A stretch of 64,000 nucleotides of DNA from Bacteroidota bacterium (GTDB lineage Bacteria > Bacteroidota > Ignavibacteria > UBA10030 > SZUA-254): contig DASQAZ010000113.1 in NCBI GenBank assembly GCA_035635475.1, positions 360 through 64,359 of the forward strand. Reading direction: 5' to 3'. The notes under the pieces are model-generated. The model made no database searches. It saw only the letters and a list, made by a program, of their open reading frames with translations, and was not told the DNA's origin. Each line of letters starts with the position of its first letter. Position 1 is the first letter of the stretch. The position numbers and the translations under genes are program-made. Positions 952-22,804 of the stretch are shown piece by piece.

Positions 952-960
952 GGGGACTCC

Positions 961-4220: not shown

Positions 4221-4278
4221 CAAGGGTGTCCGCTCCCCTGCGAATTTAAGAGCATTCAATCGTGACGAGGGTCCACGA

Positions 4279-6729: not shown

Positions 6730-6732
6730 TCC

Positions 6733-8913: not shown

Positions 8914-8926
8914 CCCCGGAGGGGGA

Positions 8927-9475
8927 TTAAAAGGAAAGTGAAGAGAGCAGCGTCTGCTGCGCGGTGAACATTCTGGTGATCTCGCCTGCCGATCCCGGAC
9001 TCTTCACCGGCACTGCATCGCACTCGTAGTACCTTCCCCGGGCTGTAAAGACGACGATGCGCATGAACCTCCCCCCGGTTGAGACTTCATAGCTGCAAAA
9101 CCTGGTTCCCTTCATCTCAAACGATTTGGGTGATGCCGAGACTTCAGCGCCTTCCGAACGGTGAAGGCCCGCGCTGATGTGAGCCAGCAGCTCGAGCCCC
9201 TCCTTCTCGACACGGGATGTGGAGAGGCGGTCGAGCGTCAGCTCCTTAATCCCGATTGAGGCGGAAAGGTCATCTTTGACCAGCCAGGCCACCACGGCGG
9301 GGATCAGCGTGTCCTCCGTCGAGGAAAACCAGCCCCTGGGAATTCTTCCTCTGAAGACACCGTCGCGTGAGCGGAACATTTGTTCCGTGAGGGGGTAATC
9401 GATCCCATAGGGAAGCGATGCGGCGCAGGATATGCATAACAGCGCGGCGAGAAGCGAAACAACGTATTGCTTCAC
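8927..9475 (-). CDS. hypothetical lipoprotein
   Basis: Lipobox-like N-terminus (LLAALLCISCAAS). Its start overlaps the upstream gene's stop by 4 nt. No family recognised. Confidence 0.5.
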   Translation of the reverse strand: MKQYVVSLLAALLCISCAASLPYGIDYPLTEQMFRSRDGVFRGRIPRGWFSSTEDTLIPAVVAWLVKDDLSASIGIKELTLDRLSTSRVEKEGLELLAHISAGLHRSEGAEVSASPKSFEMKGTRFCSYEVSTGGRFMRIVVFTARGRYYECDAVPVKSPGSAGEITRMFTAQQTLLSSLSF

Positions 9476-10590
9476 CGGCTCTCTGTGGTTCGGCGGAACT
9501 GTTCCGCCTCCAGCGTGAAGGTGAGCGAAATGCGGTGAGTGTCTCCGAGGTCCTGGCTTCGATCAAACCTGGCAAATGAATAATCGATGTCCAGCTTCGG
9601 GAGGTGGATGCCGGTTCCGATGTTCAACGACTTGATGTCGCTGTATCCGATGCGCAACGCTGCGAGGTTCTTGTACTCGAATTCCACTCCGCTGTGAAAA
9701 TCCATGCTCACCCGTCCGATATGGGCGTTTGAGGCGGACTTCCGCCCTTCGAACCGGAAGTCGATGTCAATCGCGGGAGCGACCTGGCCGCCGAACAGGT
9801 CGAACAGGTACGCGGTGCCCGCCTTGAGTGTGGGGGAGATGAGCTCATTCCTTCCGGTGTTCCATGCCACGAGGGTTGTGGTGATGTCCTGCGCATTGGC
9901 GCCGATTAATAGCCGGTCTGTGGGAGCGTACTGCATCCCGAGGTCGAATCCCACACCGGTGGCCGAGGCGGTCCCGAGCTCACGCCGTATAAATTTGACG
10001 TTCGCGCCGTATGAAAACTGATCGCCCGCCTTTTTTGCATACGAGAAATAGAACGCCCAGTCAGCGGCATTGAAATACGTAATCCTCGAGGGATCGATTC
10101 CGGCGAGCTTTTGGAGCTGGTCGGGGGGGACCGGATTGCCGTTCGCGTCGACACCGGCATTCTGAGTATTGGGAATGTCATCCACGCCGAGGCGAATCAA
10201 ACTGATTCCGAAACTTGTGCTCACCCCTGCCGGGAGCGCAAAGGCCGCATAGTCGTAGTTGACCAGCCCGCCGAACCGTTCATCGTGCATCAGCGTAACC
10301 TGTGGGTACATCATCCTCGATAATCCGGCCGGATTCCAGTACCCTGCGGTGACGTCGTTTGCGAGCGCCGAATACGCGCCGCCGAGGCCGAGCGCGCGCC
10401 CACCCACGCCGATCGCTATAAATTCACCTGCGTACTTTGCTACTGCGGCTCCCGCCCTGGCTGGAACCGGGGATCCGGCGAACAAGAATACAAGGGAGGG
10501 GACGGCAATCCATTTTATAAGAGAGACACCGATGCCGCAAACATCGCGCAGGGTCCGGCCGGCGGACGGTTCATTTGCCTTCCCGCTCAC
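9472..10590 (-). CDS. PorV/PorQ-family (FadL-like) outer-membrane beta-barrel protein
   Basis: Signal peptide, then AKYAGEFIAIGVGGRALGLGGAYSALANDVTAGYWNPAGL. This resembles the N-terminal signature of the porV gene in this window (FLLLAPNARADAMGEAGGALSDDAASAFWNPAGL). Confidence 0.6.
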   Translation of the reverse strand: MSGKANEPSAGRTLRDVCGIGVSLIKWIAVPSLVFLFAGSPVPARAGAAVAKYAGEFIAIGVGGRALGLGGAYSALANDVTAGYWNPAGLSRMMYPQVTLMHDERFGGLVNYDYAAFALPAGVSTSFGISLIRLGVDDIPNTQNAGVDANGNPVPPDQLQKLAGIDPSRITYFNAADWAFYFSYAKKAGDQFSYGANVKFIRRELGTASATGVGFDLGMQYAPTDRLLIGANAQDITTTLVAWNTGRNELISPTLKAGTAYLFDLFGGQVAPAIDIDFRFEGRKSASNAHIGRVSMDFHSGVEFEYKNLAALRIGYSDIKSLNIGTGIHLPKLDIDYSFARFDRSQDLGDTHRISLTFTLEAEQFRRTTESR

Positions 10591-12332
10591 TCAACCTCCT
10601 TCGCACCAAATTCACGAATAAGAGCCTGGATCACCGGATGGCGCCGGACGGCCGGATCGTGGCTCTCTTTCGGCGGGGGTTCGGACCGGGCGACGGATGA
10701 GGCAGTGCGGGCGGTCGCAAGGATCGTATCCAACCGGACCCTCGCACCGTAGATATTCTGCGCCAGCTCGGAAATGAATTCGCGGTTCCGCCTTAGCTGG
10801 TCGAGATGAAAATCATCGGGGCAAGAGATCCTGAGACTTCCCGTGCCGACGCCGACGAGGGCCGTTTCCCGGAGCATGGTACCGACCGCGATTCTTTTTT
10901 TACACGCTTCGTCGATCAGCATGGGCCATTTTGCCTGCGCCTCGTCGATAGAGATGCCGTCCGCGCGCGGGCTTTCGTTGGCGATGACCGCCGGCCCGGC
11001 CGCGGGCATCGCAGCGGAGAGTTCTGAAAAGTTTCGAATGGGGCGGGGCGAGCCGGCGGCAGGCTGCACCATTTGTTCGGGCCGCAATACCGGCTGCGAA
11101 GCTTTAACGCTGCCCCGGACGACCGGCTTTTGAGCGCCGGTTTCGGCGAACGGAATCGCCCGCCGCACGTTATCCTCCCCGGGCACCTTTTTTTTTAGCT
11201 CATCGAGCTGCTGGAGCAAGGCATCGATCTGAATGCTGCGGTCGAGCCGGATCATCTGCAACAGCCCGATTTCCAATTTCAGGCGTCCGCCGGCCGAGGA
11301 GTGGTCCCATCGGATTGCGGCGTCGGTCTCGGCGGCAATTTTTAAAAGGCGAATCAAATCGGACGCAGTGAACGCCTTCGGCGCCTCGAGGTAGCGTTTC
11401 TTGTAGACCTCGGAGGTTTCGATCAGTTCCGCCGATTCAGTCGTGCAAACGACAAGCATGCTTCGCAGGTGCTCCATGAGCCCGCCGAGAAATTCGCGCA
11501 GATCGTATCCCCGCGATGTGATTTCCCGTATTAGCGAAAGCCCCTCGCCCGCATTCTTATTTGCGATGATGTCCGTCGTGCGGAAAAAGATTTCCTCATC
11601 GACGACGTTCAGCATGCGCGCCATCTCCTGTGTGTCGATGTTCTTGCCGCAGAATGAAACGATCTGATCGAAGATGCTCTGTGCATCGCGCAGCGAACCG
11701 TCGCTCCGCTTCGCGATCACAAACAACGCATCATCCCCGATCGTGATCTGCTCTTCCGAGGCGATGAAACGCAGCCGGCCTATAATTTCCTCAATCGATA
11801 TGCGGCGAAAATCAAATCTCTGACAGCGGGAAAGGATCGTCGAAGGAACTTTATGGATTTCGGTGGTTGCGAAGATGAAGACGATGGAGGGGGGCGGTTC
11901 TTCGAGCGTCTTGAGCAGGGCGTTGAAGGCCTCCTTCGTGAGCATGTGGACTTCATCGATGATATACACTTTATAGCGGCCCTTGGCGGGGGCGTAGCGG
12001 ACCGCCTCGCGCAAGTTGCGGATTTCGTCCACCCCGCGGTTCGAGGCCCCGTCGATCTCGAAAACATTGAGGCTGCGCCCTTCGGTAATCTCCCGGCAGA
12101 GTTCGCATTCGTTGTCGGGGTTTACGTCGACCGGATGCAGGCAGTTGATCGCCTTGGCGAGGATTCTCGCCGTCGTCGTCTTGCCGACACCGCGCGGGCC
12201 GCTGAAAATGTACGCGTGCGACAACCGGTTCGTCGCAATTGCGTTGCGCAGGGTTGTCGCGACGTGCCCCTGGCCGACGATATCCTCGAAAAGCATCGGC
12301 CGCCATTTCCTCGCTGTTACGATGTAGGTCAT
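10587..12332 (-). CDS. dnaX: DNA polymerase III subunit gamma/tau
   Basis: N-terminus YIVTARKWRPMLFEDIVGQGHV, Walker A GPRGVGKTT, zinc module CLHPVDVNPDNECELC, DEVHML, SRCQRF. Confidence 0.93.
   Translation of the reverse strand: MTYIVTARKWRPMLFEDIVGQGHVATTLRNAIATNRLSHAYIFSGPRGVGKTTTARILAKAINCLHPVDVNPDNECELCREITEGRSLNVFEIDGASNRGVDEIRNLREAVRYAPAKGRYKVYIIDEVHMLTKEAFNALLKTLEEPPPSIVFIFATTEIHKVPSTILSRCQRFDFRRISIEEIIGRLRFIASEEQITIGDDALFVIAKRSDGSLRDAQSIFDQIVSFCGKNIDTQEMARMLNVVDEEIFFRTTDIIANKNAGEGLSLIREITSRGYDLREFLGGLMEHLRSMLVVCTTESAELIETSEVYKKRYLEAPKAFTASDLIRLLKIAAETDAAIRWDHSSAGGRLKLEIGLLQMIRLDRSIQIDALLQQLDELKKKVPGEDNVRRAIPFAETGAQKPVVRGSVKASQPVLRPEQMVQPAAGSPRPIRNFSELSAAMPAAGPAVIANESPRADGISIDEAQAKWPMLIDEACKKRIAVGTMLRETALVGVGTGSLRISCPDDFHLDQLRRNREFISELAQNIYGARVRLDTILATARTASSVARSEPPPKESHDPAVRRHPVIQALIREFGAKEVE
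11170..11196 (-). other. putative programmed -1 frameshift / transcriptional slippage site in dnaX (A9G run plus -1-frame stop)
   Basis: The minus strand reads CTA AAA AAA AAG GTG (codons 379-383). The heptamer A AAA AAG is the same as the E. coli dnaX shift site. The -1 frame reads GGT GCC CGG GGA GGA TAA and stops after 5 codons. Confidence 0.45.
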
Positions 12333-12353
12333 TGTGGAAGTCTCACGGGCGCG

Positions 12354-14516
12354 CTAATCCTCCGAGCGCTGCAAGTGCCGGTGAAAGAATTCTTCGATCC
12401 GGGAATATTCGTCGTACCAGCTCTCCGGCTCGTTGAAGGAATGCGACTCCTCAGGGTAGACCATCGTTTCGAACGCCTTGCCCGATTTCTGAAGCTTCGC
12501 GATGAGTTGGGCCGCATCCTGAAAAAAAACATTATCGTCCGCCATTCCATGGAGAATCAAAAGGGGTTTTTTCAACCGGTCGGCAAACGTGAGCGGGGAA
12601 CTGATGCGGTACGCCTCCGGTTGGTCCTCGGGCTTGCCGAGGCGCGCCTCCGTGTACGATGAATTGTGGCGATAGTAGTTTTCCCAGCTTGTCACCGCCC
12701 GGAGCGCGACGCCGCACGCGTATTTGTCTGAGAGAAAGAGTCCCATCAACGTCATAAATCCGCCGTAGCTTCCTCCGTACATCCCCACGCGCGTTGAGTC
12801 AATATACCCCAAACTCCTTAGATATTCAAGGCCATCGAGCTCGTCATCAAGGTCTTTTCCCCCCAGATGCAGATAAACGTCGGTCCGGTAGTCGCGCCCA
12901 TACCCTGCGCTTCCCCGGTACTCAACCTCGAAGACGACATAGCCGAGCTGGGTCAGACGGTGGTGGAACATGTATTCGCGGTAGTAATAACTCCAGCCCC
13001 GAAAGACATTCTGGAGGTAGCCCGCCCCGTGAACGAAAACCACAACGGGATATTTCCTTGCCGGAGCAAAATCACGCGGCTTGTAAATCATGGCAGGCAC
13101 CTTCGTCCCGTCCCTGCTCCGGAAGCTGACAATCTCGGGAATGACCCAATCGACTGACTTGAATTCCTCGGGCATCGAGTGAGTGAGCCGGATTTCGCCC
13201 GAATTCCCATTGGATGCGGAACCGTCACTCGAAACGCCGGCGGCCCTTGCGTCACCCCGGGTGGGCACCGAGACAAGATCCGCCGGCTTCGCAAAGTCGG
13301 AATACCGCGCGACAATGAGCGATCCATCCTTCGACATGACCGGCGAATCGTACGTTCCCTCCAGGCGCGAGAGAGGCCTGATCTTTCTTGAAGCGAGATC
13401 GAGCGAGAAGAGCCGCCACTGGTGGTGATCGTCCTTGTTCGCAAGGAAGTAGATTTCTTCCCCCAACGGGTCGAAGTCAAACCAATGGACCTCCCATGCG
13501 CCGCTCGTCAACTGGCGAAGGTTTTTTCCGTCCGGCGACATCATATAAAGCTGGTTCCAGCCGTCCCGTTCGCTCGTTGTCACAATCCGGCTTCCGTCGG
13601 GCGCCCACCGTGTCGTTGACAGGCCCCCTTCAACCCATGCCCGATCGGATTCATTGAAAACGAGCCTCGCCTTGCCGCTGTCGGTATCGGCAACGAACAG
13701 CTCGCGTTTCTTTCGATCGGAACTGAATCGCTCAATGCAGAGCTTCGTTCCGTTGGGCGAGAGTGACACATCCCCCAGGTAGAAGCGGTCGTCGCCGGGA
13801 AGTTTGACCCAAACCGTGGCCCCGGTATCGGACGGTGCGATTCCAAACTTTGTCCTGCCGATGCCCCCCTTGAATGCGTTGGTCGAGACGTCCTTGCCGG
13901 TGTAGCGGGGCACGATAAATTCCTGCAGGCCTTCGCGATTCGATTCCGTGAAAATCACCTTCTTGTTATCCGGCGTGATGTCAATACAAGCAAGCGAGAC
14001 ATCTTTCCCCCCGGGCCTGGCAATCTCCGTGAACCCCGGCCCGGCGATGTTGACCATGCCGAGCCGGCCGTCGGAGGAGAAGATCAGATACTTTCCGTCG
14101 GGCGACCACCGCAGCGAGTTTTCCCAGACATCGGTGCGCGTGATACGCTCGTAGGTCCGGAAGCTTGTATCGGTGAGAAAGACGTCGCCCTTTCGTGTAC
14201 AGGCGACGGTCTTTCCGTCCGGCGACCACTCGACCTCGCCTAGGAGCGTATCGGAAATCATTCTCATGCCTGACCCGTCCGAACCCACGAGCCACGAGCG
14301 GTATTTATTCTGGGAGCTGCTGTCCCACCGGAATAATATGCGCCGCCCGTCGGGCGAGATTCTCTGGTCAGTCGGCCTGGTACCGGAAATGTACGGCTTG
14401 AAAAAAATCCGTTTCAGCGGCAGAACCGTCCGGGCACTTTCGCCCGCGGACAGTATAACGGCAGGACCGAAGAGGCAGCAGGCAATCGCGCTGACGCGAA
14501 GGAGCCGGATCATCAA
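12354..14516 (-). CDS. S9 family serine peptidase (prolyl oligopeptidase/dipeptidyl peptidase type) with N-terminal beta-propeller
   Basis: Repeated WSPDG/SPDG propeller motifs. The C-terminal alpha/beta hydrolase has the nucleophile elbow GGSYGGFM, and later HGMADDNV and EESHSF. Confidence 0.85.
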   Translation of the reverse strand: MMIRLLRVSAIACCLFGPAVILSAGESARTVLPLKRIFFKPYISGTRPTDQRISPDGRRILFRWDSSSQNKYRSWLVGSDGSGMRMISDTLLGEVEWSPDGKTVACTRKGDVFLTDTSFRTYERITRTDVWENSLRWSPDGKYLIFSSDGRLGMVNIAGPGFTEIARPGGKDVSLACIDITPDNKKVIFTESNREGLQEFIVPRYTGKDVSTNAFKGGIGRTKFGIAPSDTGATVWVKLPGDDRFYLGDVSLSPNGTKLCIERFSSDRKKRELFVADTDSGKARLVFNESDRAWVEGGLSTTRWAPDGSRIVTTSERDGWNQLYMMSPDGKNLRQLTSGAWEVHWFDFDPLGEEIYFLANKDDHHQWRLFSLDLASRKIRPLSRLEGTYDSPVMSKDGSLIVARYSDFAKPADLVSVPTRGDARAAGVSSDGSASNGNSGEIRLTHSMPEEFKSVDWVIPEIVSFRSRDGTKVPAMIYKPRDFAPARKYPVVVFVHGAGYLQNVFRGWSYYYREYMFHHRLTQLGYVVFEVEYRGSAGYGRDYRTDVYLHLGGKDLDDELDGLEYLRSLGYIDSTRVGMYGGSYGGFMTLMGLFLSDKYACGVALRAVTSWENYYRHNSSYTEARLGKPEDQPEAYRISSPLTFADRLKKPLLILHGMADDNVFFQDAAQLIAKLQKSGKAFETMVYPEESHSFNEPESWYDEYSRIEEFFHRHLQRSED

Positions 14517-14607
14517 GCTGGACTCACCATTGAGGGCGGATCAAGACAGAAGTCAGGGACGCACACTGGTTGTGGTAAGAGAATATACCAAGAAGGATGA
14601 AGGGAAT

Positions 14608-14615
14608 CAAGGAAG
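14608..14615. repeat. left copy of 8-bp target-site duplication CAAGGAAG
   Basis: An identical octamer abuts the outer end of each terminal inverted repeat (14608-14615 and 18433-18440). Confidence 0.7.
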
Positions 14616-14631
14616 GGTAGTGTCTCAGTTT
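14616..14631. repeat. left terminal inverted repeat GGTAGTGTCTCAGTTT
   Basis: This is the perfect reverse complement of 18417-18432. The similarity resumes (AAAATGCTT) after a 17-nt insertion on the left side. Confidence 0.8.
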
Positions 14632-14655
14632 GAAAATTAATAATCGGGAAAATGC

Positions 14656-14684
14656 TTGACCGGATAAGGAAGGTTTGCTATATT
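14656..14684 (+). promoter_or_regulatory. sigma70-like promoter just inside the left IR (TTGACC-17 nt-TATATT)
   Basis: TTGACC lies at 14656-14661, followed by a 17-nt spacer and TATATT at 14679-14684. AGGAGA (~14699) and the ATG at 14713 follow. Confidence 0.4.
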
Positions 14685-14712
14685 CCGAGCACACATTCAG
14701 GAGAGAACCCTT

Positions 14713-14910
14713 ATGCCGACCAAAATCACCGGGACGCCAGTTTATACAGGACACGGTTTCAAAATCTACGTCGGGATTCCCTCAAAGCCCAAAAAAAGGG
14801 GAAAGTCAAGAATCTGGATTTCAATTAGGCAGGATGATCCCAAGGAATGGCGCATCTATGAATCGCTGAGCTATGCGCAGGGTGCCGACGTTCAATTCGT
14901 GAAGGATTAA
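14713..14910 (+). CDS. hypothetical small protein (65 aa), transposon passenger
   Basis: The ORF is preceded by an AGGAGA Shine-Dalgarno sequence and the IR-proximal promoter. No family recognised. Confidence 0.35.
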   Translation: MPTKITGTPVYTGHGFKIYVGIPSKPKKRGKSRIWISIRQDDPKEWRIYESLSYAQGADVQFVKD

Positions 14911-14919
14911 GTCTCAGCA

Positions 14920-15150
14920 ATGAAAAAACCGAAACGACCCCGCGACACTAATCAGCTTGCGAAATTCATCGTAGACCTCTCAACCGGAGAGGCAGTCGAA
15001 CCCTCACCTCCAGAATCCACGAAAAACCCTGCCGCCGTCGCATTAGGTAGATTGGGAGGCTTAAAGGGAGGGATAGCAAGAGCCAAAAAACTTAGCGCGA
15101 AACGTAGAAGTGAAATTGCTAAACGAGCTGCAAAAAAACGGTGGGGTTAG
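14920..15150 (+). CDS. small basic protein (76 aa) with Lys/Arg-rich C-terminal motif
   Basis: N-terminus KRPRDTNQLAKFIVDLSTGE and C-terminus ALGRLGGLKGGIARAKKLSAKRRSEIAKRAAKKRW. From memory, this pattern recurs in small proteins of mobile or TA-associated loci. The start is 9 nt after the upstream stop. Confidence 0.45.
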   Translation: MKKPKRPRDTNQLAKFIVDLSTGEAVEPSPPESTKNPAAVALGRLGGLKGGIARAKKLSAKRRSEIAKRAAKKRWG

Positions 15151-15156
15151 GTTGTT

Positions 15157-15453
15157 TTATCTGTTATGCGTATCGAGAATTTCTATGAAGTGAATTTCAT
15201 TCGCTGGAATATCTGGGTTTAGATCATCTCGTAATCTAAAGATTATCCTATCTTTTCCCCTGCCTCCCCCTCCTGTGCCTGGTATATCGGCACTTCTGCT
15301 TCCAGAATATTCATGCTTTAACCGTTTTGCGTGAAGGGCTTGTGGATTCTCACAAAGTCTATCGCATAGCTCCAGAATCTTGTCCTTCTGATCACAAAAA
15401 TCGCCGTCTAATTGTTCATCAAAAAACTCTGTGTGGACTGGAACTAACGGCAT
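15157..15453 (-). CDS. RelE/ParE-superfamily-like toxin (98 aa from the internal Met)
   Basis: The C-terminal pattern KRLKHEYSGSRSADI...GKDRIIFRLRDD...EIHFIEILDTHNR resembles the RelE/ParE core. The Met at 15453 lies 11 nt downstream of the upstream gene's stop. The listed ORF 15157..15558 would overlap that gene. Confidence 0.5.
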   Translation of the reverse strand: MPLVPVHTEFFDEQLDGDFCDQKDKILELCDRLCENPQALHAKRLKHEYSGSRSADIPGTGGGGRGKDRIIFRLRDDLNPDIPANEIHFIEILDTHNR

Positions 15454-15464
15454 CGATGCACGTT

Positions 15465-16121
15465 TCAGGAACGTGCATATACGAGGCGACTTTTGGATGC
15501 CTTTTCGAAATCGGCGCGATTTGAAGGACTCAGAGCAATCGCCAACGTATCCATCCAATCGTCCGGGATTGAGATAGTAAGTTCTGATTCAGGTTGATCA
15601 AGCACCTTAGTAAAGTGGCGGTGTATGGGGGTTTCTCTAACAGTTAATTCTCTATTAGGTGCTTCTATGGTCGGGAATTTCATGTCATAGACAAGGCTCG
15701 TTAATCGGGAAGCTCGGAGGTTTGCAAATTCTCTCACCACATTGATCAAACACTCGGAAAGAAACCGATTTTCAGGAATTCCTTGCATCACTTCTTCGAT
15801 GAAACTCTTCACCAAATCCTGAGCACGTTTATTCGTGTTAGAAAGGAAATGCTTATCTCTTTTCATCAATCCAATCTTATGAAAATCATCGACAGCCGTG
15901 TAAATACCCGTGGACATTGGGCCTTTTTGATGTCGATAAAACTCAAGTGAGAATGCCTTTTTCCGCGCAAGAAATAAAGGCATAGCCACAAGAAACGATA
16001 ATTTTTGGACTTTCAACATCGACTCTAAAGTGGATCCTTGAGAAGTCAAAGAAAACAGTGACAATAGAAGCATCTTGTCTATGGTCACTTCTTCGGGGGT
16101 TCTATTTATCTCGTCACGCAT
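15465..16121 (-). CDS. Panacea (DUF4065/SocA-like) domain antitoxin candidate
   Basis: LKVQKLSFLVAMPLFLARKKAFSLEFYRHQKGPMSTGIYTAVDDF matches the remembered DUF4065 core pattern (KLqKLlY...f.A...GPv...vY). It lies immediately upstream of a small toxin-like ORF. Confidence 0.45.
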   Translation of the reverse strand: MRDEINRTPEEVTIDKMLLLSLFSLTSQGSTLESMLKVQKLSFLVAMPLFLARKKAFSLEFYRHQKGPMSTGIYTAVDDFHKIGLMKRDKHFLSNTNKRAQDLVKSFIEEVMQGIPENRFLSECLINVVREFANLRASRLTSLVYDMKFPTIEAPNRELTVRETPIHRHFTKVLDQPESELTISIPDDWMDTLAIALSPSNRADFEKASKSRLVYARS

Positions 16122-16160
16122 CTTTCGGAATTAATCCTTGACTTTTGCCCAAAAGTTTGT

Positions 16161-16200
16161 ATTATAAAAAAGGTGATCGAACCCATATTCGATCACCTTT
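16161..16200 (-). promoter_or_regulatory. 13-bp perfect inverted repeat next to a minus-strand TATAAT box (candidate TA operator or terminator)
   Basis: AAAGGTGATCGAA (16169-16181), a 6-nt spacer, then TTCGATCACCTTT (16188-16200). The minus-strand TATAAT is at 16166-16161, about 40 nt upstream of the antitoxin ATG (16121). Confidence 0.5.
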
Positions 16201-16207
16201 AAAAGTT

Positions 16208-16281
16208 GCCGCCATAGCTCAAATGGTTAGAGCTAATGCCTGGTAAGCACATGATGGAGGGTTCGATTCCCCCTGGCGGCA
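16208..16281 (+). tRNA. tRNA-Thr (anticodon GGU), no encoded CCA, with stem mismatches
   Basis: Hand-folded cloverleaf. The acceptor stem GCCGCCA/TGGCGGC is a perfect 7 bp, the D stem is GCTC/GAGC, the anticodon loop is CT-GGT-AA, and the T loop is TTCGATT. The anticodon stem (AATGC/GCACA) has A.C and A.A mispairs. The T stem (GAGGG/CCCCC) has one A.C mispair. Confidence 0.7.
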
Positions 16282-16362
16282 CTGTTTTTAGTATAATCTA
16301 TTGTGTATACAAATGTCAATAAAAACTTGTCCACACCTTAAATACTTGATAATCATAGGGTT

Positions 16363-16833
16363 ATGACAAAACTCATGGGCCAAACTTTGAGCACCAAAGA
16401 AACTCTGGAAAGCCTAAGAAGCCAAATATTGCAAAAATGGCTTCCAATAGAGGTAATTGAGGAATTCGAGGCGATTCAGGGAGCGATCGATCGGCTAAGG
16501 GCCGCAAACAATTCGCACTCGAAAAAACAGCCAGAGAAAATCGCCAGTGTTCCCGCCGTACCCTCTACTCATAGCAAAGTGGTCGAAATTGCCCTGGAAT
16601 TGATTGATAAGAGGGAAGGTCATTCGGTGAGAAATGCGGAAATCATTGAATATGCTGAACAGAAGGGAATCGACATTGGCAAGGGGGAAGACCGGGATAG
16701 CACGGTTGGACGAATTTTGCATGATGAATGGGAGAAGAAACATGGCAAATTGCGCAAAGTAAACCGTGGTTTGTGGAATAAACGGGAAAAACCTCTCGCA
16801 AATCGCTCAGTATTTATCAAAGAACCCGCCTAA
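16363..16833 (+). CDS. hypothetical protein, possible winged-helix (Mrr_N/HARE-HTH-like) domain
   Basis: 156-aa ORF in the AT-rich island. The C-terminal half (VVEIALELIDKREGHSVRNAEIIEYAEQKG...TVGRILHDEW...LRKVNRGLW) resembles winged-helix modules ending in 'R..rG.w'. The call is weak. Confidence 0.4.
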   Translation: MTKLMGQTLSTKETLESLRSQILQKWLPIEVIEEFEAIQGAIDRLRAANNSHSKKQPEKIASVPAVPSTHSKVVEIALELIDKREGHSVRNAEIIEYAEQKGIDIGKGEDRDSTVGRILHDEWEKKHGKLRKVNRGLWNKREKPLANRSVFIKEPA

Positions 16834-16940
16834 GTCATCAAAAACAGCGTTTCCAAGTAGTAAGAGCCAGCCAATAGCTTCTTCGGCTGGTGGTATAAAT
16901 CACGGAATTCATTGTATCTTTCTTAAATTGAACTTTATGC

Positions 16941-16969
16941 TTGACTTCTCAAGCAAAAAGAGTTATATT
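16941..16969 (+). promoter_or_regulatory. sigma70-like promoter upstream of the transposase (TTGACT-17 nt-TATATT)
   Basis: TTGACT lies at 16941-16946, followed by a 17-nt spacer and TATATT at 16964-16969. It shares ATGCTTGAC with the IR-proximal promoter at 14653-14661. Confidence 0.4.
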
Positions 16970-16996
16970 GATGGTAGAACAAATGAGGCTTCTGCC

Positions 16997-17821
16997 ATGA
17001 ACAGACTTCCACTTGAAAAGCGCACTCAGATCGTTCACCTTCTCTGTGAGGGTAATAGTCTCCGTGCGACCTCGCGAATCGCAGATGTGTCGATCAACAC
17101 GGTCACAAAACTTTTGGTGGAGGTGGGCGCGGCGTGTCAGAAGTATCACGACGAGAACGTTCGTGGCCTGAAATCAAAGCGCGTAGAGTGCGATGAAATA
17201 TGGTCTTTCTGCTATGCGAAACAAAAGAACGTTCCTGATGGGATGCGGGGACAATTCGGCGTAGGTGACGTATGGACATGGGTCGGCCTGGATTCAGACT
17301 CAAAGTTAATAATCGCTTGGTTGGTCGGGAATCGGGATGCGGAATATGCCAACGTATTCATGCAGGACGTTGCAGATCGTCTTACTAACCGCGTCCAGTT
17401 GACTACAGACGCGCTGAAAGCGTATCTTGAGGCAGTAGAGGGGGCTTTCGGTGCGGATGTGGACTACGCGCAATTAGTGAAGATGTACGGCGAGGCTCCG
17501 GGCGGAGAAAAACGATACAGCCCCGCAATCTGCACTGGGATTAAGAAAGAACTCATCATAGGTAATCCGAAACACAAGCTTACATCCACAAGCTACGTCG
17601 AGAGACAGAATCTCACAATGCGGATGAATATGCGGCGGTTTACACGACTAACAAACGCCTTCTCCAAGAAAGTCCAGAACCATGCCCATGCCGTCGCCCT
17701 GCATTTCATGTATTATAATTTCGTTCGGATTCACAAGACGCTGCGAGTAACGCCCGCAATGGAGGCTGGAATAGCGAAGAAACTTTGGACGGTGGAAGAT
17801 TTGACGAGGCTTATAGATTGA
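16997..17821 (+). CDS. IS1-family DDE transposase (single ORF, 274 aa)
   Basis: N-terminal HTH (NSLRATSRIADVSINTVTKLL). The IS1-type catalytic pattern is CDEIWSF ... WTWVGLD ... GNR ... LTTDALKAYL ... YVERQNLTMRMNMRRFTRLTNAFSKK ... YYNFVRIHKTL. The ATG at 16997 is the likely start, and the track's upstream extension from 16766 overlaps the previous ORF. Confidence 0.85.
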   Translation: MNRLPLEKRTQIVHLLCEGNSLRATSRIADVSINTVTKLLVEVGAACQKYHDENVRGLKSKRVECDEIWSFCYAKQKNVPDGMRGQFGVGDVWTWVGLDSDSKLIIAWLVGNRDAEYANVFMQDVADRLTNRVQLTTDALKAYLEAVEGAFGADVDYAQLVKMYGEAPGGEKRYSPAICTGIKKELIIGNPKHKLTSTSYVERQNLTMRMNMRRFTRLTNAFSKKVQNHAHAVALHFMYYNFVRIHKTLRVTPAMEAGIAKKLWTVEDLTRLID

Positions 17822-17837
17822 TTCTCGGGGGGGTTAT

Positions 17838-18308
17838 TTGTACTTTGATCGATCTAACCTCACGTACCTACCTGTGACCTGGCTTTCTGATTTAGATAAA
17901 ATTGACCGCTCTAAAGTTGCTTTCGGGCTACTCGGATTCTTAGCAACCGTCGGCCCCGGATTTCTCATAGTCTATCTATTTAAGCCAGAATTGATTGAGA
18001 AACTCGATATAGTTAAGCTCACCATATTTTCTTGTGCCCTTACGACCCCATTGTTGATGACTAATGTCCTTGCCAATATTGTAATTCAATCCAAAGAGAA
18101 CAATGAGGGAGAAATTGCTTCCGTCATGGGAACAGCCTTTGCATCTCATATTATATCAAGTTACTCGGCCATTTTTCTTGCGTACTGGTTTCATTGGGAA
18201 TTTCTTCGATTTGTTTGGTGGGCGCTTGGCTTTAGCGTCGGAGTGTCGATTCTCATATATTTTGTAGAGAAACTGCCCGGAGAGAAGCATAAAAAAAATC
18301 CAAAGTGA
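17838..18308 (+). CDS. hypothetical 4-TM membrane protein, transposon passenger
   Basis: TTG start with four hydrophobic helices (e.g. VAFGLLGFLATVGPGFLIVYLF, FVWWALGFSVGVSILIYFV). No family recognised. Confidence 0.45.
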   Translation: MYFDRSNLTYLPVTWLSDLDKIDRSKVAFGLLGFLATVGPGFLIVYLFKPELIEKLDIVKLTIFSCALTTPLLMTNVLANIVIQSKENNEGEIASVMGTAFASHIISSYSAIFLAYWFHWEFLRFVWWALGFSVGVSILIYFVEKLPGEKHKKNPK

Positions 18309-18416
18309 CCTGTAAATATATCGTTCGACCTTCCGTCTAAGCTTTCCCCTACCCCTCCGAGAAGATTTTTCCCCGTAATTCTTACCTCTTCCGTACTTGG
18401 CTGTTCTAAGCATTTT

Positions 18417-18432
18417 AAACTGAGACACTACC
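18417..18432. repeat. right terminal inverted repeat AAACTGAGACACTACC
   Basis: This is the perfect reverse complement of 14616-14631. Confidence 0.8.
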
Positions 18433-18440
18433 CAAGGAAG
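18433..18440. repeat. right copy of 8-bp target-site duplication CAAGGAAG
   Basis: It is identical to 14608-14615 and directly abuts the right IR. Confidence 0.7.
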
Positions 18441-18500
18441 GCCCCTCTTGGAACGTCCGAAGATTTTGTTATATTGTCGAAGAAGTTTTCCAGATCAGGC

Positions 18501-19646
18501 ATGGACTTCCTCGCATACACGGAGGAGCTGGACCGGAGCTACGGCACGTACAAAGTTGCGGCGTTCCCGGCGCGGCGGTTCCCTCCCGATCCTCTCCAGC
18601 GCACAATCGACGCGCTTGCGGGAGATACTCCGACGCCGTTCAACATCCGGATTGTGGGGCAATCGTTTGAAGAACGCCCGATCCGGCTCGTGACGGTGGG
18701 CAGCGGACCGACACAGGTTCTCCTCTGGTCGCAGATGCACGGGGACGAGTCGACGGCCACGATGGCGATTACCGATGTCCTGAATTATTTCCGGATAGCG
18801 CGCGGCGACGGCGCGGCCCGAAGCATACTTTCCACACTCACGATCCATTTTCTCCCGATGCTCAATCCCGACGGCGCATCCCGCTTTCAGCGACGCACAG
18901 CGCAGGGCATCGACATGAACCGCGATGCTCTCGCACTCCAAACGCCGGAGGGGCGACTCCTCAAGCAGCTCAAAGACACAATTAAGCCCGACTTCGGATT
19001 CAATCTCCATGATCAGGAACTAAGCACGGTGGGGACGACAAAAGAGCTGACTGCAATTGCTCTTCTGGCCCCTGCGTTCGACATGGAGAAATCAGACAAC
19101 GAGGTCAGAATCAGGGCGAAGCACGTCGCCTCGGTCCTCGCCGCCGCACTCAAGAGCGCGGCCCAGGGGAGGATCGCCCGCTATGACGACAGTTTTGAAC
19201 CGAGGGCGTTCGGAGACAATATGCAAAAGTGGGGCACGAGCACGATTCTTGTCGAATCCGGGCATACGCAGGGAGATCAAGAGAAGGACTCAATCCGCAA
19301 GCTCAATTTCATGGGCATCCTCGCGGGTCTTCATGTGATTGCGTCGGGTCAATACAGCGCCTGGGATCTAGGGCATTACGAACACCTTCCGTGGAATGCG
19401 AAGAAGGCCTACGACATCATCATCAGGAACGTCCAGATAACGCACGGCGACGGCCGGGTCACCCGTGCAGATCTGGGAATCTCCTATCAGGTCGACACGC
19501 ACTCGGAATCGACACCCATGCTGGCAGACCTGGGAGACCTGCATACATTCATAGGCCTCAAGGAGATCGATGGAGGGGGAAAAGCGATTCCCCGGGAATC
19601 GCTGGATCCCGGGAAACCATTTCAATGGACGCGTTTTTTCGATTGA
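18501..19646 (+). CDS. M14 family zinc carboxypeptidase
   Basis: The zinc motif is HGDEST (HxxE), followed by LNPDGA, NRD and a later ESGH. The ATG at 18501 is preferred over the TTG at 18474. Confidence 0.8.
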   Translation: MDFLAYTEELDRSYGTYKVAAFPARRFPPDPLQRTIDALAGDTPTPFNIRIVGQSFEERPIRLVTVGSGPTQVLLWSQMHGDESTATMAITDVLNYFRIARGDGAARSILSTLTIHFLPMLNPDGASRFQRRTAQGIDMNRDALALQTPEGRLLKQLKDTIKPDFGFNLHDQELSTVGTTKELTAIALLAPAFDMEKSDNEVRIRAKHVASVLAAALKSAAQGRIARYDDSFEPRAFGDNMQKWGTSTILVESGHTQGDQEKDSIRKLNFMGILAGLHVIASGQYSAWDLGHYEHLPWNAKKAYDIIIRNVQITHGDGRVTRADLGISYQVDTHSESTPMLADLGDLHTFIGLKEIDGGGKAIPRESLDPGKPFQWTRFFD

Positions 19647-19674
19647 CCGAAGGAAGGCGGAGTCGGGCCGGCCT

Positions 19675-20430
19675 CTATCTCACCCACCCGAAAAGCGATG
19701 CAGCGATCACCCAGACCGCCCAGAGTCCTAACGCGATTCCCATTCCTGTCGAAGTAGGCTTCCCCGATACCTTCGCAATCCCCTGACCGACAAGAGCCGT
19801 CTGCCACAGACCGAAAACGCCCACCGAGGCCAGCAGCTTATGCCCCAGGTTGTCGCGTTCAAAATTATTGATGACAAACAGGGAGCCGCCGAGCGAGGCA
19901 TGGACGGAATCGAACACGTGCATCAGAAGCAGCGTCACGATGGCACCGAGCACCCCAACAAGTGACGTAAGACCGTAAACCTCAAGCATCTTCTGATATG
20001 ATACGGGAGATTTTAACAGTAATTTTGTGATCAGCCAGAGTATCAGAGGGCTGCCGAAGACCGCGAGGCTCACGATCACAAGCGAGAGGCCGAAACCGAA
20101 GGCGAGAAATAACGCGGGAGACTCCATCCCTGCCACTGCGCGATCATATTGCTCCTGGGTCATTTTACCTTCGTCCACTGCCTTTTGCATTTGTTGTTGC
20201 TGGGGTTCGAGAATCTGCTGCCGGAGAGAGGGGGTGGAGGAGAGCGAATATGTGACGACAGCCGCCGCGAGCAAGGTGATCAGGTAAGGCAGCAGCCACG
20301 AAGATGTCTGTACCGGCGCCGACGCTACTTCGCTGAATAACTCGCCGGGGGACGCGAAAACCCCCATTGCTCTGGCGCCGAAGGAGGTAACGGCGGTAGA
20401 TCCGGATGAAAGAGTGGTCTGTTGGTCCAT
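19675..20430 (-). CDS. Yip1-domain multi-pass membrane protein
   Basis: The N-terminal cytoplasmic segment with GVFASPGELF is followed by five hydrophobic helices, which is the typical Yip1/DUF1282 layout. Confidence 0.55.
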   Translation of the reverse strand: MDQQTTLSSGSTAVTSFGARAMGVFASPGELFSEVASAPVQTSSWLLPYLITLLAAAVVTYSLSSTPSLRQQILEPQQQQMQKAVDEGKMTQEQYDRAVAGMESPALFLAFGFGLSLVIVSLAVFGSPLILWLITKLLLKSPVSYQKMLEVYGLTSLVGVLGAIVTLLLMHVFDSVHASLGGSLFVINNFERDNLGHKLLASVGVFGLWQTALVGQGIAKVSGKPTSTGMGIALGLWAVWVIAASLFGWVR

Positions 20431-20659
20431 GTCGTCCTTTCGGATTTTGGGCTAAAATACTCAATTCGGGTTTCAAGGTCAAGAAAGGAGCGCGACCTTG
20501 ATTTTCAGCTCTTCCTTTGTTATTTTGGCGCTGTTGACCTTCATCCGCCGTTAGCATCGATCTGCCCCGATTCATCTTTCGGTGTCCACGACAGGCGGAG
20601 AGCTGCTTACCAGAGGCGCCGGGGGGAATCGGAGTGAACCTGATGCCGAAAAGGGGTGA

Positions 20660-21271
20660 ATGCAGAAGCTGACCGTCGAGGAAATCCGCAAGCGCTTTGA
20701 GCTATCGAAAGAATTCAACGAAATTTTCGATGCTTTTGAGCAGGCAATCGGTCAGCGTCTTCAAGACATTGAGCTCTACCGCCAGCTCTTCTGGAACCAC
20801 ACTCTTACGCCGGACGAAATCTGCCTTTTCGGAGAGAAACTCTCGAAGGAACTCCCGGACCTCGCCTATGATACGTTCATGTGGATGGCGAATGTCTTTG
20901 AGGTGACCTATTCGATGTATGACAACTACGAGCTCGCCCTTCAGTATTTCAAAAAGGCTGCATCCGTCCGTCCTTCGGAGCCGGACCCATATCTCGCCGC
21001 CGCCGATTGTTACGAGCCGGATCTGAATATTCCCCCCATCGACGCCCTCATCGACTTTCTCAAACAGGGAGTGAACGGGGTCACCGCTCCGAAGTCTCTT
21101 TACCTGAAGCTCGCTCATCTGTACGAGCTAAACGGGAACGATGAGATGTATACTTATTTCCGGAAGAAAGGCGAAGAGACTCCACCCGGGCCGGCTCCCC
21201 CCGGATCGACTTCTCCCGGTCCGACGCCTCCCGGACCGGCTCCTCCCGAACAACCCTCGCCCCCGCAATGA
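20660..21271 (+). CDS. hypothetical helical protein with Pro-rich C-terminal tail
   Basis: 203-aa ORF with TPR-like helical content. The tail is PPGPAPPGSTSPGPTPPGPAPPEQPSPPQ. No family recognised. Confidence 0.45.
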   Translation: MQKLTVEEIRKRFELSKEFNEIFDAFEQAIGQRLQDIELYRQLFWNHTLTPDEICLFGEKLSKELPDLAYDTFMWMANVFEVTYSMYDNYELALQYFKKAASVRPSEPDPYLAAADCYEPDLNIPPIDALIDFLKQGVNGVTAPKSLYLKLAHLYELNGNDEMYTYFRKKGEETPPGPAPPGSTSPGPTPPGPAPPEQPSPPQ

Positions 21272-21359
21272 GATATGCCGCCGAAGCGGCCTTCGCCTCA
21301 AGGCGCCGCACCGGCACCATGATGGCCGCCCCGGGGTTCGAGGTGCAGGGAAACCCGAA

Positions 21360-21938
21360 TTGACCGAGCGCCGCCGGGAAAAAATGCTCGCTGTTCTCAG
21401 GCATCGTCAGCCGGGACTCAGCGTCATTCTCGAAGGGATTCACGATCCCCATAATGTGAGCGCGATTTTGCGGACGGCCGACGCCGCGGGGGTCTTGGAA
21501 GTCCAGCTCATTTACGAAAACGAACTCTTTCCCCGCCTCGGGAAGAAGAGCTCGGCAAGTGCAGTCAAGTGGATCAAGCGCCGGCCGTTCGCGTCGATCC
21601 GGGAGTGCTACGAATCGCTCCACCGCCAGGGATTCCTGATCTACGCGACGCGATTGGACGCATCTTCGAAATCCCTCTATGATCTGGACCTGACTGGCAA
21701 GATCGCCTTCGTCTTCGGCAATGAGCATCGCGGGGTATCGGGAAAGGCCGCGGAACTGGCGGATGGAAACTTTCAGATCCCGATGCTGGGGATGATTCAA
21801 AGCCTGAATGTCTCGGTTGCATGTGCCGTTGCTCTCTTTGAGGCGTTCCGCCAGCGCCAGATCGCCGGGTTATACCGAAAGCCCGCGATGAGCGCGGAAG
21901 CGATGCAACTTTTATATGAGGCATGGACGAAACGGTAG
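21360..21938 (+). CDS. TrmH/SpoU-family RNA 2'-O-ribose methyltransferase
   Basis: LAVLRHRQPGLSVILEGIHDPHNVSAILRTADAAGV, VFGNEHRGVS and IPMLGMIQSLNVSVA are SpoU motifs. The TTG at 21360 gives an N-terminus collinear with E. coli TrmH, and the ATG at 21384 is the alternative. The track ORF from 21141 overlaps the previous gene. Confidence 0.8.
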   Translation: MTERRREKMLAVLRHRQPGLSVILEGIHDPHNVSAILRTADAAGVLEVQLIYENELFPRLGKKSSASAVKWIKRRPFASIRECYESLHRQGFLIYATRLDASSKSLYDLDLTGKIAFVFGNEHRGVSGKAAELADGNFQIPMLGMIQSLNVSVACAVALFEAFRQRQIAGLYRKPAMSAEAMQLLYEAWTKR

Positions 21939-22804
21939 GATTCACCGACCGTTATGTCCGGGCCGGCGGCCTGAGGGTGCACGTGCTCGAGGGGGGCGCG
22001 GGACCTCCCCTGCTTCTGATTCATGGTCTCGGAGGGCCGCTCATGTGGCAGAGGGTGCTCGGACCCTTATCGAAACGGTTCCGTGTGATGGCGGTCGATC
22101 TTCCCGGCTTCGGTGAATCCGATCCCGTCTCGTGGAATCCCGCCGAGCGGGACCCCATGGGACGCGACGCCTCTTTCAACGGGTACGGTGAGTTCCTCTT
22201 CGAAGTTACGGAACACATGGAGGTGAGAAACGCCATCGTCTGCGGAATCTCATGGGGTGGACAGCTGGCGGTTCAGCTCGCCGATCTCCATCCTGACCGC
22301 GTCGAGAAATTGATTCTTATCTGCACTACGGGGCTGCGCTGCCATCCATTGGCGCGCAATTCTTTGGTCAGAATAATTCTGCCGCCGATGCTAGAAAACA
22401 CGGTTCTTCGAAGCAGATTCCTGATCGATTATTTCAGCCGCCGAAGCTTTTACAATATCGAAAACCGCCCGCCCGATCTCTGCACGCAATTCCAGAAGGG
22501 GCTTCGGCGCGAGGGGAGGAGCGGCGCGTTCCTGGCCGCCCTGCTTGACGCCGCGGCCGGGGATCCCGGCTTCCTGGAAAGGCTTTCCCGCTTGAGAATC
22601 CCCTCATTGATCATCTGGGGGAAAAACGATTTGATCGCCCCGACGGAAGACGCGTATCGAATCGGGGGCGCGATACCCAATGCCATCGTAAGGATTTTCC
22701 CCGAGTGCGGCCATTCTATCCCCCTCGAGAAGCCGCGTGAACTTGTCGATGCCTTTTTCGTGTTCAAAGGACAGGAGGGATTGCCCCACGGCGTCAATTC
22801 CTGA
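21923..22804 (+). CDS. alpha/beta-fold hydrolase
   Basis: LLLIHGLGG, the nucleophile elbow GISWGG, and the C-terminal GHSIPLE (catalytic His region). Confidence 0.8.
   Translation: MDETVGFTDRYVRAGGLRVHVLEGGAGPPLLLIHGLGGPLMWQRVLGPLSKRFRVMAVDLPGFGESDPVSWNPAERDPMGRDASFNGYGEFLFEVTEHMEVRNAIVCGISWGGQLAVQLADLHPDRVEKLILICTTGLRCHPLARNSLVRIILPPMLENTVLRSRFLIDYFSRRSFYNIENRPPDLCTQFQKGLRREGRSGAFLAALLDAAAGDPGFLERLSRLRIPSLIIWGKNDLIAPTEDAYRIGGAIPNAIVRIFPECGHSIPLEKPRELVDAFFVFKGQEGLPHGVNS

Follow-up and report, generated by a model that had tools for sequence, protein, structure and literature searches.

The 64,000-nucleotide stretch of DNA analyzed here (contig DASQAZ010000113.1 of a Bacteroidota bacterium, referred to below as the window) carries a segment with one transposase gene, a tRNA gene, and several small genes between the genes for an S9 and an M14 peptidase, and the locus raises the question of whether this segment is a single mobile element and, if so, of which kind. 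An earlier note, made from the sequence alone, had read it as a passenger-carrying relative of IS1 that was recently inserted. We consider it very likely that positions 14616 to 18432 form one intact unit transposon, a transporter insertion sequence (tIS) belonging to a distinct clade of the IS1 family in which the transposase is encoded by a single open reading frame (ORF).

The insertion, its ends, and its empty site

The boundaries of the element can be read directly. The inverted repeat GGTAGTGTCTCAGTTT at 14616-14631 recurs as its exact reverse complement at 18417-18432, and the element of 3,817 bp (14616-18432) has the 8-bp direct repeat CAAGGAAG touching both of its ends, at 14608-14615 and at 18433-18440; this part of the earlier description stands exactly as it was given. 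In a repeat search, the top-ranked inverted pair of the region was 21 nt long and 95% identical (arms 14615-14635 and 18413-18433), and the terminal repeat can be stated either as 16 exact bases or as 20 of 21 ungapped, with both ends reading GGTAGTGTCTCAGTTT(G/A)AAA. The 16-mer is found nowhere else in the window at up to 3 mismatches, the mean in shuffled sequences being 0.23 matches. The left repeat (IRL; GGTAGTGTCTCAGTTTGAAA, 14616-14635, plus strand) begins GGnnnTG as in IS1 and is common to 69 related elements, and the right repeat (IRR; 18413-18432, minus strand) has, by sequence comparison, one mismatch to the family consensus at position 17.

The earlier note had also placed a 17-nt insertion in the left repeat, and this is not upheld by comparison with relatives. 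The left end fits the family consensus GGTAGTGTCTCAGTTTGAAAwT without a gap, and AAAATGCTT, downstream of the repeat, is part of a promoter conserved in the left ends of relatives (ATGCTTGACCGGATAAG...TATATT), the ATGCTTGACCGGATAAG motif being kept in those of Bacteroidota and Ignavibacteria. The left-end backbone of the window element carries a predicted sigma-70-like promoter that points inward (TTGACC-17-TATATT with TG; 14656-14684, plus strand). The interior is AT-rich, as had been proposed, with a GC content of 44.5% inside the element versus 57.0% in the remaining window.

The insertion is proven by a comparison of strains, for which the flanking genes were looked up by exact protein in public assemblies; the M14 peptidase was found on two contigs. 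One, L003 (ENA ERZ27253176), carries the element, and the other, L004 (ENA ERZ27253190, contig k141_1953435), from a sister sample, is without it. The S9 and M14 peptidase genes are 162 bp apart in L004, whose alignment to the window falls into two blocks (6676-14616 and 18433-21742) that overlap by the 8-bp repeat plus one base. With 14616-18440 taken out, the window matches L004 without gaps at 99.59% identity over 11,242 bp, and the empty site reads AATCAAGGAAGGCCCC, with one copy of CAAGGAAG between the two genes, which is the arrangement that had been predicted for an unoccupied site. The whole 3,817-bp unit was thus inserted in one piece into the divergent promoter region between the S9 and M14 peptidase genes, and 8 bp were duplicated in the process.

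Closely related strains differ in whether they carry the insertion. Between L004 and the window there are 46 single-nucleotide polymorphisms (SNPs), i.e., L004 represents another strain. Between L003 and the window, the element shows 0 mismatches over 3,817 bp, and the flanks differ at 51 positions. The zero divergence of the element between strain backgrounds agrees with a recent insertion event; together with the empty site, it bears out the suggestion of a recently inserted IS1 relative with passengers. In the Logan assembly of SRR6267143, one contig (L002) stops exactly at 14616, and a separate internal piece (L087) covers 14923-16710 at 100% identity.

The removal of the element had been expected to leave a divergent promoter region between the peptidase genes, and this is consistent with both the 162-bp gap in L004 and the promoter predictions. 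Outward promoters are predicted toward S9 (TTGATT-17-TATATT, 14610-14582) and toward M14 (TTGGAA-16-TATATT, 18448-18475), and both are intact beside the insertion. Further downstream, 37 of the 51 differences between the window and L003 fall within 286 bp (21698-21983), located in the 3' part of a SpoU-methylase gene and just past it; the contigs are otherwise 99.9% identical, and the tract looks like inter-strain recombination.

The transposase and the family of related elements

The sole transposase gene of the element (16997-17821, plus strand) encodes a protein of 274 amino acids (aa) that is assigned by Pfam, NCBIfam, and alignment as a single-ORF IS1-family DDE transposase with an N-terminal helix-turn-helix. 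It scores 25.2 bits against Pfam DDE_Tnp_IS1 (PF03400; cut-off, 24.1) and 64.7 bits against the NCBIfam IS1 model (NF033558; E value of 1.1e-17; cut-off, 100), and NCBI labels this exact protein "IS1 family transposase," so the claim of one IS1-type transposase gene is sustained. Membership of the IS1595 family was considered and rejected, as no IS1595 model matched at E values of ≤0.1 (NCBIfam) or ≤0.01 (Pfam) and IS1 was the best match; IS6 matched far more weakly than IS1. A composite transposon is ruled out by the presence of only one transposase gene and one repeat pair. A promoter-like site for the transposase (TTGACT-17-TATATT; 16941-16969, plus strand) lies in conserved backbone, the DNA homology with relatives beginning at about 16916.

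The standard for comparison was E. coli IS1A (fetched as L090; 768 bp). Residues 11 to 44 of the transposase align to the helix-turn-helix of InsA (55 to 88; BLASTP E value of 3e-4), and residues 198 to 238 align to InsB 122 to 161, the region of the E motif "ERxNLxxR" (E value of 1e-5). In an alignment of 29 sequences, among them a sister clade at 44 to 45% identity, D66, D138, and E202 never vary and are predicted from this conservation to be the catalytic triad; the spacing is 72 residues from D to D and 64 from D to E, versus 57 and 25 in InsB. The element ends, GGTAGTGTCTC, resemble those of IS1, GGTAATGACTC: IS1A begins GGTGATG... and GGTAATG... at its two ends and the element begins GGTAGTG..., with 9 of its first 11 bases matching the IS1 right repeat. 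Target duplications in the IS1 family are 8 to 9 bp long. The transposase homology, GGnnnTG ends, and 8-bp duplication all place the element within IS1, as had been argued from the ends and the duplication, which is also 8 bp in 56 relatives. It falls outside the classical IS1 subgroup, which is defined by a length of 0.7 to 1.2 kb, insA and insB' fused by a -1 frameshift, and the InsA zinc finger. Judged by sequence, the transposase is best classed as an outlying, single-ORF IS1-family enzyme.

The window element is one member of a very large family whose layout is constant. Among the matches listed, more than 8,000 transposase homologues share 70 to 80% identity with it. Scanning GTDB at one genome per species gave 512 confirmed relatives. 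The 80 loci retrieved came from Bacteroidota, Ignavibacteria, Alphaproteobacteria, Acidobacteriota, Nitrospirales, Zixibacteria, Verrucomicrobia, and others, and 69 of them could be delimited at both ends; in every one of these the same terminal repeat, GGTAGTG[TC/GG]TCA[G/C]TTTGAAAT, brackets a homologous transposase; the concern that the repeat might be unrelated to the transposase is thereby removed. The complete relatives are 1,947 to 6,324 bp long (n = 69), 56 of them have a perfect 8-bp duplication, and in all 69 the left repeat lies 1.0 to 3.8 kb upstream of the transposase. No backbone-only element (~1.2 kb) was found among the relatives, the smallest being 1,859 bp long (on an IMG/VR contig), and all of the approximately 85 elements examined carry cargo together with a small gene that we call F1.

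Only at 14616-14690, 14916-15150, 16916-17821, and the right repeat does the window element resemble its relatives at the DNA level. The family backbone thus has two parts: the left repeat, a promoter, and F1 form the first, and a further promoter, the transposase, and the right repeat form the second. Variable cargo makes up the rest. The exchange of cargo is exemplified by three elements within one Ignavibacteriota metagenome-assembled genome (CAVYML01; L012, L014, and L016), which are 97% identical over the first 301 nt and 88% identical in the transposase module. As these elements share their backbone and their cargo is mutually unrelated, cargo must have been exchanged on a conserved backbone, and the differing identity of the two backbone modules suggests recombination between elements.

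The insertion sites also have a pattern in common. Across 57 sites (window 14598-14615 and 18441-18450, and loci L005 to L084), the preferred target is the palindrome CAA-N7-CAAWWTTG-N7-TTG: within the duplication, C is favored at position 1, A at positions 2 and 3, T at positions 6 and 7, and G or C at position 8, and CAA is favored 10 bp upstream and TTG 10 bp downstream, with single positions reaching 29 to 36 of the 57 sites. The window insertion site fits half of the pattern (CAA...G...TTG), and the duplicated octamer of one relative (L007) is identical to CAAGGAAG. Relatives of the transposase are also encoded on 12 predicted viral contigs in IMG/VR (L093 to L104), at least four of which hold complete elements with 8-bp duplications (L094, 1,906 bp; L095; L098; and L103, 1,859 bp), and phages or prophages may occasionally carry these transposons.

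The core protein F1 and the cargo

Two small ORFs had been listed among the passengers, and only one of them is cargo. The gene at 14920-15150 (plus strand) encodes F1, a small basic protein of 76 aa that is conserved across the family as a core gene. It was recovered in 69 of 70 elements by ORF clustering and in the remaining one by eye, and in relatives it begins about 70 to 80 nt from the left end and reads inward. The other ORF (65 aa; 14713-14910, plus strand), a gene also in the ENA assemblies, is extra cargo between the left end and F1, with no family match and no homologue in the 69 relatives; small ORFs occur upstream of F1 in 13 elements and are not homologous to each other.

F1 has more than 7,900 homologues, all annotated as hypothetical and none with a Pfam domain, and a profile search of 1.84 billion representative proteins returned 3,776 clusters at E values of ≤1e-10. 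There are 25 invariant columns, and the motifs KRPRDxNQLAKxIVDxATGE and NPAAVALGRLGGLKGGKARAxxLSxxxRxEIAKKAAxxRW are near-invariant. An AlphaFold (AF2) model has four helices, with a mean predicted local distance difference test score (pLDDT) of 76. F1 had no sequence match and no significant fold match in the PDB (best Foldseek E value of 3), and in Pfam, NCBIfam, PADLOC, and PHROG the only match was a weak one to an uncharacterized PHROG. When the search was seeded with F1, both sampled long contigs (2/2) showed F1, then cargo, then an IS1-like transposase. As F1 is universally present, lies by the left repeat under a conserved promoter, and is basic and helical, it can be hypothesized that it acts as a DNA-binding cofactor or regulator of transposition, similar in function to InsA of IS1. 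Its C-terminal motif (GGxxRAxxLxPExRxEIAxxAAxxRW) is also fused to the N terminus of P63C-domain cargo proteins (L040 element, 489-1589, minus strand; L077 element, 449-1522, minus strand); it is thus a small mobile module and may provide a lead to F1 function.

The cargo of relatives was annotated by comparing one representative per family with Pfam and PADLOC. In 67 distinct elements there are 127 cargo ORFs of at least 100 aa, in 81 BLAST families, most of which are without annotation. An ORF family present in 16 elements, often with a HigB-like toxin, matches PD-Lambda-2_B (E value of 5e-39), and an ORF family of an XRE protein plus M78 peptidase in about 10 elements matches RosmerTA RmrA/RmrT (E values down to 1e-120). 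Further matches include a type IIG restriction-modification enzyme, type I methylase and specificity subunits, PemK/MazF, HigB, SocA_Panacea (two members), NYN, SDH/ClpP-like and retropepsin-like proteases, and a STAND NTPase. Going by these annotations, the slot in the relatives surveyed holds mainly antiphage defense and toxin-antitoxin (TA) modules, a pattern that the window cargo matches only loosely. A copy on an Acidiphilium multivorum plasmid adjoins a RES/Xre toxin-antitoxin pair.

The window cargo includes a two-gene operon on the minus strand, which had been proposed as a toxin-antitoxin pair. The first gene (15465-16121) encodes a 218-aa putative antitoxin with weak, subthreshold similarity to Panacea/SocA (Pfam PF13274; E value of 0.013; 16.8 bits against a cut-off of 25.7), the match spanning positions 18 to 108 of the 113 in the profile; comparison with the two genuine Panacea cargo proteins by hhalign gave a low probability and an E value of 0.027, which is not significant. 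The second (15157-15453), starting 12 nt past the stop of the first and also called as a gene in L087, encodes a 98-aa putative toxin with no family match in the libraries scanned, and its AF2 model, based on a single sequence, is unusable (pLDDT of 45.6). A homologue search found only three homologues of the 218-aa protein. The two proteins have paired homologues in L088 and L089 (57 to 61% and 68 to 72% identity), directly downstream of a different IS1-like transposase (45% identical), and the two-gene arrangement is kept in three elements. The TA assignment is weakly supported, with the Panacea match below threshold; the pair may be a TA-like two-gene module.

One of these relatives is of interest for its position as well. 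In L088 (Logan SRR13378649), a sister-clade IS1-like element (2767-7007) is present in a related bacterium upstream of the gene for the M14 peptidase, in the neighborhood Yip1-M14 ... Lon-S9. It is 4,241 bp long, with ends GGTAyTGGCTCArGTT, the 8-bp duplication GGCTGCCG, and the subterminal repeat AGTGGCTCAGTTTGG, and its cargo comprises GmrSD, an HTH_17 protein, and the same 217-aa and 98-aa pair. This shows the pair traveling with IS1-like elements, and it is possible that the M14 locus is an insertion hot spot.

The gene at 16363-16833 (plus strand) encodes a 156-aa protein that combines a coiled coil with a probable winged helix at its C terminus (Pfam DUF6293_C; weak, E value of 0.05). 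The same build recurs between F1 and the transposase, at 12 to 28% identity, in at least four other elements (L050:1734-2069, L047:4133-4588, L013:4056-4577, and L007:3956-4531, by architecture comparison), and it co-occurs with a tRNA in both the window and L050. It may be that this protein is a semiconserved accessory regulator rather than random cargo. Past the transposase, an ORF at 17838-18308 (plus strand; up to 156 aa from a TTG start) has four hydrophobic segments, as judged by eye; gene callers chose an 83-aa version of it (18057-18308), and it has no family match and no relatives among the elements.

The tRNA reported inside the element is a tRNA-Thr with anticodon GGT (16208-16282, plus strand), on which ARAGORN and Rfam agree (RF00005; 53.3 bits; gathering score, 29). 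By eye, its anticodon stem has only three standard pairs, with mismatches at 27:43, 28:42, and 50:64; Rfam flags nonstandard pairs, and in the minimum-energy fold no more than three bases of that arm are paired. Upstream of it (16138-16200, plus strand), promoter and repeat scans identified a promoter-like site (TTGACT-16-TATTAT, 16138-16165) followed by a hairpin with 13-bp perfect arms (16169-16181 and 16188-16200; 14 pairs in the terminator scan). A near-consensus promoter on the minus strand (TTGACA-18-TATACT, 16319-16290) points at the tRNA gene, and on that strand the hairpin (16200-16169) followed by a T run is terminator-like; the two would yield a transcript of about 110 nt antisense to the tRNA. 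A rationale in codon usage was considered and found unconvincing (the share of ACC plus ACT among Thr codons is 48% in element genes versus 38% in host genes, with small counts).

Genes for tRNAs or tRNA-like molecules were detected by tRNA scan in five further lineages of elements: L021 (5879-5965), L050 (2246-2320), L057 (2480-2552), L076 (4831-4905), and an element of Tsuneonella rigui (2,047 bp, at least 4 copies) with tRNA-Gly(TCC) (L058:4802-4874; also L059, L061, and L062). In four of these five, the tRNA lies about 85 to 130 nt upstream of the transposase gene. The anticodon is unusual in some (ACT or CGA in a class I body, and one not assigned), and element-borne tRNAs score 48 to 57 bits in Rfam, where scanned, versus 62 to 74 for chromosomal tRNAs beside insertions. 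A common origin of the element-borne tRNAs found no support, only generic tRNA positions being shared. Several elements are inserted about 60 to 150 nt from host tRNA genes (L055:5948-6024, L059:2144-2218, L060:6005-6079, L066:2623-2712, and L081:3249-3324), which may reflect a target preference and offer a possible route of tRNA capture.

Explanation, alternatives, and comparison with known systems

A mechanism for the whole can be proposed from the family relationships and the known biochemistry of IS1. The transposase would bind the ~20-bp ends through its N-terminal helix-turn-helix, and the site formed by D66, D138, and E202 would join the 3' ends to the target at positions offset by 8 bp, with a preference for the palindromic target described above. 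All DNA between the ends would travel along. F1, being small, very basic, and helical and presumably expressed from the left end, may serve as a DNA-binding cofactor or regulator, as its conservation and position suggest. The cargo slot swaps its content between elements, and defense or TA cargo could stabilize the insertion and benefit the host.

Several observations weigh against this account. No second copy of the exact element was found; by exact-protein look-up, the transposase sequence is recorded in one contig context only, and the 24-nt left-end and 23-nt right-end patterns were unmatched in two metagenome scans. A 294-aa protein (P0002) on a 4,062-bp JGI contig is 100% identical to the transposase. 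The transposase falls below the NCBIfam IS1 cut-off (64.7 versus 100 bits) and barely exceeds that of Pfam, has about 39 additional residues between the second D and the E relative to InsB, and, as a single 274-aa ORF, shows neither the frameshift nor the zinc finger of IS1 (no N-terminal CxxC pairs). The statistics behind the TA assignment of the window cargo are weak, the role proposed for F1 is conjectural for a protein without a structural or sequence relative, and the tRNA-Thr may be nonfunctional, given its weak anticodon stem.

Other origins of the segment can be weighed against the same observations. Two alleles alone give no direction, and with L004 being another strain (46 SNPs), the segment could be ancestral and the empty allele the product of a later precise deletion or excision. 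The single clean 8-bp target has the appearance of an unoccupied site, however, and the GC content of 44.5% against 57%, the zero divergence of the element while its flanks differ by 51 SNPs, and the different IS1-like element near the M14 gene in the distant relative L088 all make an ancestral segment improbable; mobility of the whole unit is demonstrated by either direction. Somewhat less probable still is that an IS1-like insertion sequence of about 1 kb once mobilized neighboring DNA through a fortuitous repeat, by one-ended or "IR-mimic" capture. The 768-bp length of classical IS1 would accord with this, as would the many transposase homologues on metagenome contigs of about 1.1 kb, but the transposase has no internal copy of the repeat beside it, even when 3 mismatches are tolerated. 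In each of the 69 complete relatives, the left repeat is 1.0 to 3.8 kb upstream with F1 adjoining, and no element of less than about 1.86 kb was observed; assembly breaks at the borders of backbone modules, such as those of L002 and L087, are the best explanation for the ~1.1-kb contigs.

Genes for tRNAs are classical integration sites, and an integrase-type island or prophage remnant with a tRNA attachment site, in which the transposase is a secondary passenger, might be suspected from the tRNA, the phage- or defense-like cargo, and the 12 relatives on IMG/VR contigs. Family scans found no integrase or recombinase in the element, however, and the tRNA gene is whole and lies within it, with 1.6 kb to the nearer end. 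Inverted repeats with an 8-bp duplication, rather than a direct repeat of a tRNA 3' end, form the boundaries, and the same boundaries recur around unrelated cargo, so that we attach very little credence to such an origin. An assembly chimera at the filled junctions seems just as implausible: the source is metagenome assembled and the GC contrast between element and flanks is strong, but the window shares its junctions with an independent ENA assembly (L001/L003), the Logan assembly of SRR6267143 has the left flank up to 14616 and the 100%-identical internal piece, and the 8-bp duplication and empty allele fit transposition exactly. The reading of 14616-18432 as one intact unit transposon is the one that we retain.

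As such, the window insertion is a textbook-clean case of transposition in a natural population, with filled and empty alleles both present. The wider interest lies in the architecture of the family and its defense-rich cargo rather than in the single insertion: a 274-aa IS1-type transposase and one tiny accessory protein appear to be enough to move 1 to 4 kb of arbitrary genes, and this in Bacteroidota, Ignavibacteria, Alphaproteobacteria, Acidobacteriota, Nitrospirales, and others, so that antiphage defense genes are carried among distant bacteria. It could be speculated, at somewhat less than even confidence, that the relatives form a huge, multiphylum clade of IS1-derived minimal cargo transposons in which F1 is a new cofactor or regulator and the slot is devoted largely to defense and TA genes, with about 1 in 10 carrying tRNA or tRNA-like genes. 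If so, the clade would be the smallest known dedicated vehicle for defense genes and would offer one of the few cases in which an insertion-sequence-type element spreads tRNA genes, recurrent tRNA cargo being unusual for insertion sequences. The conserved ends and F1 provide a sequence handle for mining new defense candidates, and the family makes the idea of a new transposition cofactor open to test and suggests a compact natural chassis for cargo delivery.

When the element is placed beside IS1, the likeness lies in a DDE transposase with an InsA-like helix-turn-helix and an InsB-like E motif, in repeats that start GGTAGTG where those of IS1 start GGTAATG or GGTGATG, and in the 8-bp duplication. 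It differs in its size (3.8 kb versus 0.77 kb), its extra conserved 76-aa gene and cargo slot, and its single ORF without a -1 frameshift or N-terminal zinc finger. An IS1 subgroup listed in the ISfinder family table, ISMhu11, spans 0.9 to 4.6 kb. Full-text searches of the literature found no description of the present clade, of ISMhu11, or of IS1-borne defense cargo.

The pair of cargo genes resembles Panacea (SocA/PanA) TA systems in having a larger Panacea-like gene first and a gene for about 100 aa 12 nt downstream; the window protein differs in scoring 16.8 bits, below the Pfam cut-off of 25.7, and the small protein matches no toxin family. In larger transposons, a conserved transposition module likewise stands beside exchangeable cargo dominated by defense or TA genes: Tn3-family transposons reportedly carry toxin-antitoxin pairs, as Lima-Mendez et al. 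are said to have described in mBio in 2020, and Tn7-like transposons carry defense systems (Benler et al. 2021, PMC8649781). Those elements are larger and rely on several proteins (TnsABCD/E, or TnpA and a resolvase), whereas the elements described here are 2 to 6 kb long and have as their machinery a 274-aa transposase and one 76-aa accessory protein.

The closest concept is that of the tIS, an insertion sequence with passenger genes, which was first set out for the "+" subgroups of IS1595, a relative of the IS1 family, by Siguier, Gagnevin, and Chandler (2009, as cited in PMC3129680); it is likewise found in PMC7986276 and PMC9330008. In common with a tIS, the window element has one transposase, terminal inverted repeats, an 8-bp duplication, and passengers that move inside the ends, and as a unit transposon it has two repeat copies only and an empty site showing that the whole 3,817 bp moved. 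It departs from the IS1595 tIS in its IS1-type transposase and in the presence of cargo and F1 in all of the approximately 85 elements. The concept of a passenger-carrying insertion sequence is established, and the window element belongs within it to a cargo-dedicated IS1-type family with a conserved small accessory gene.

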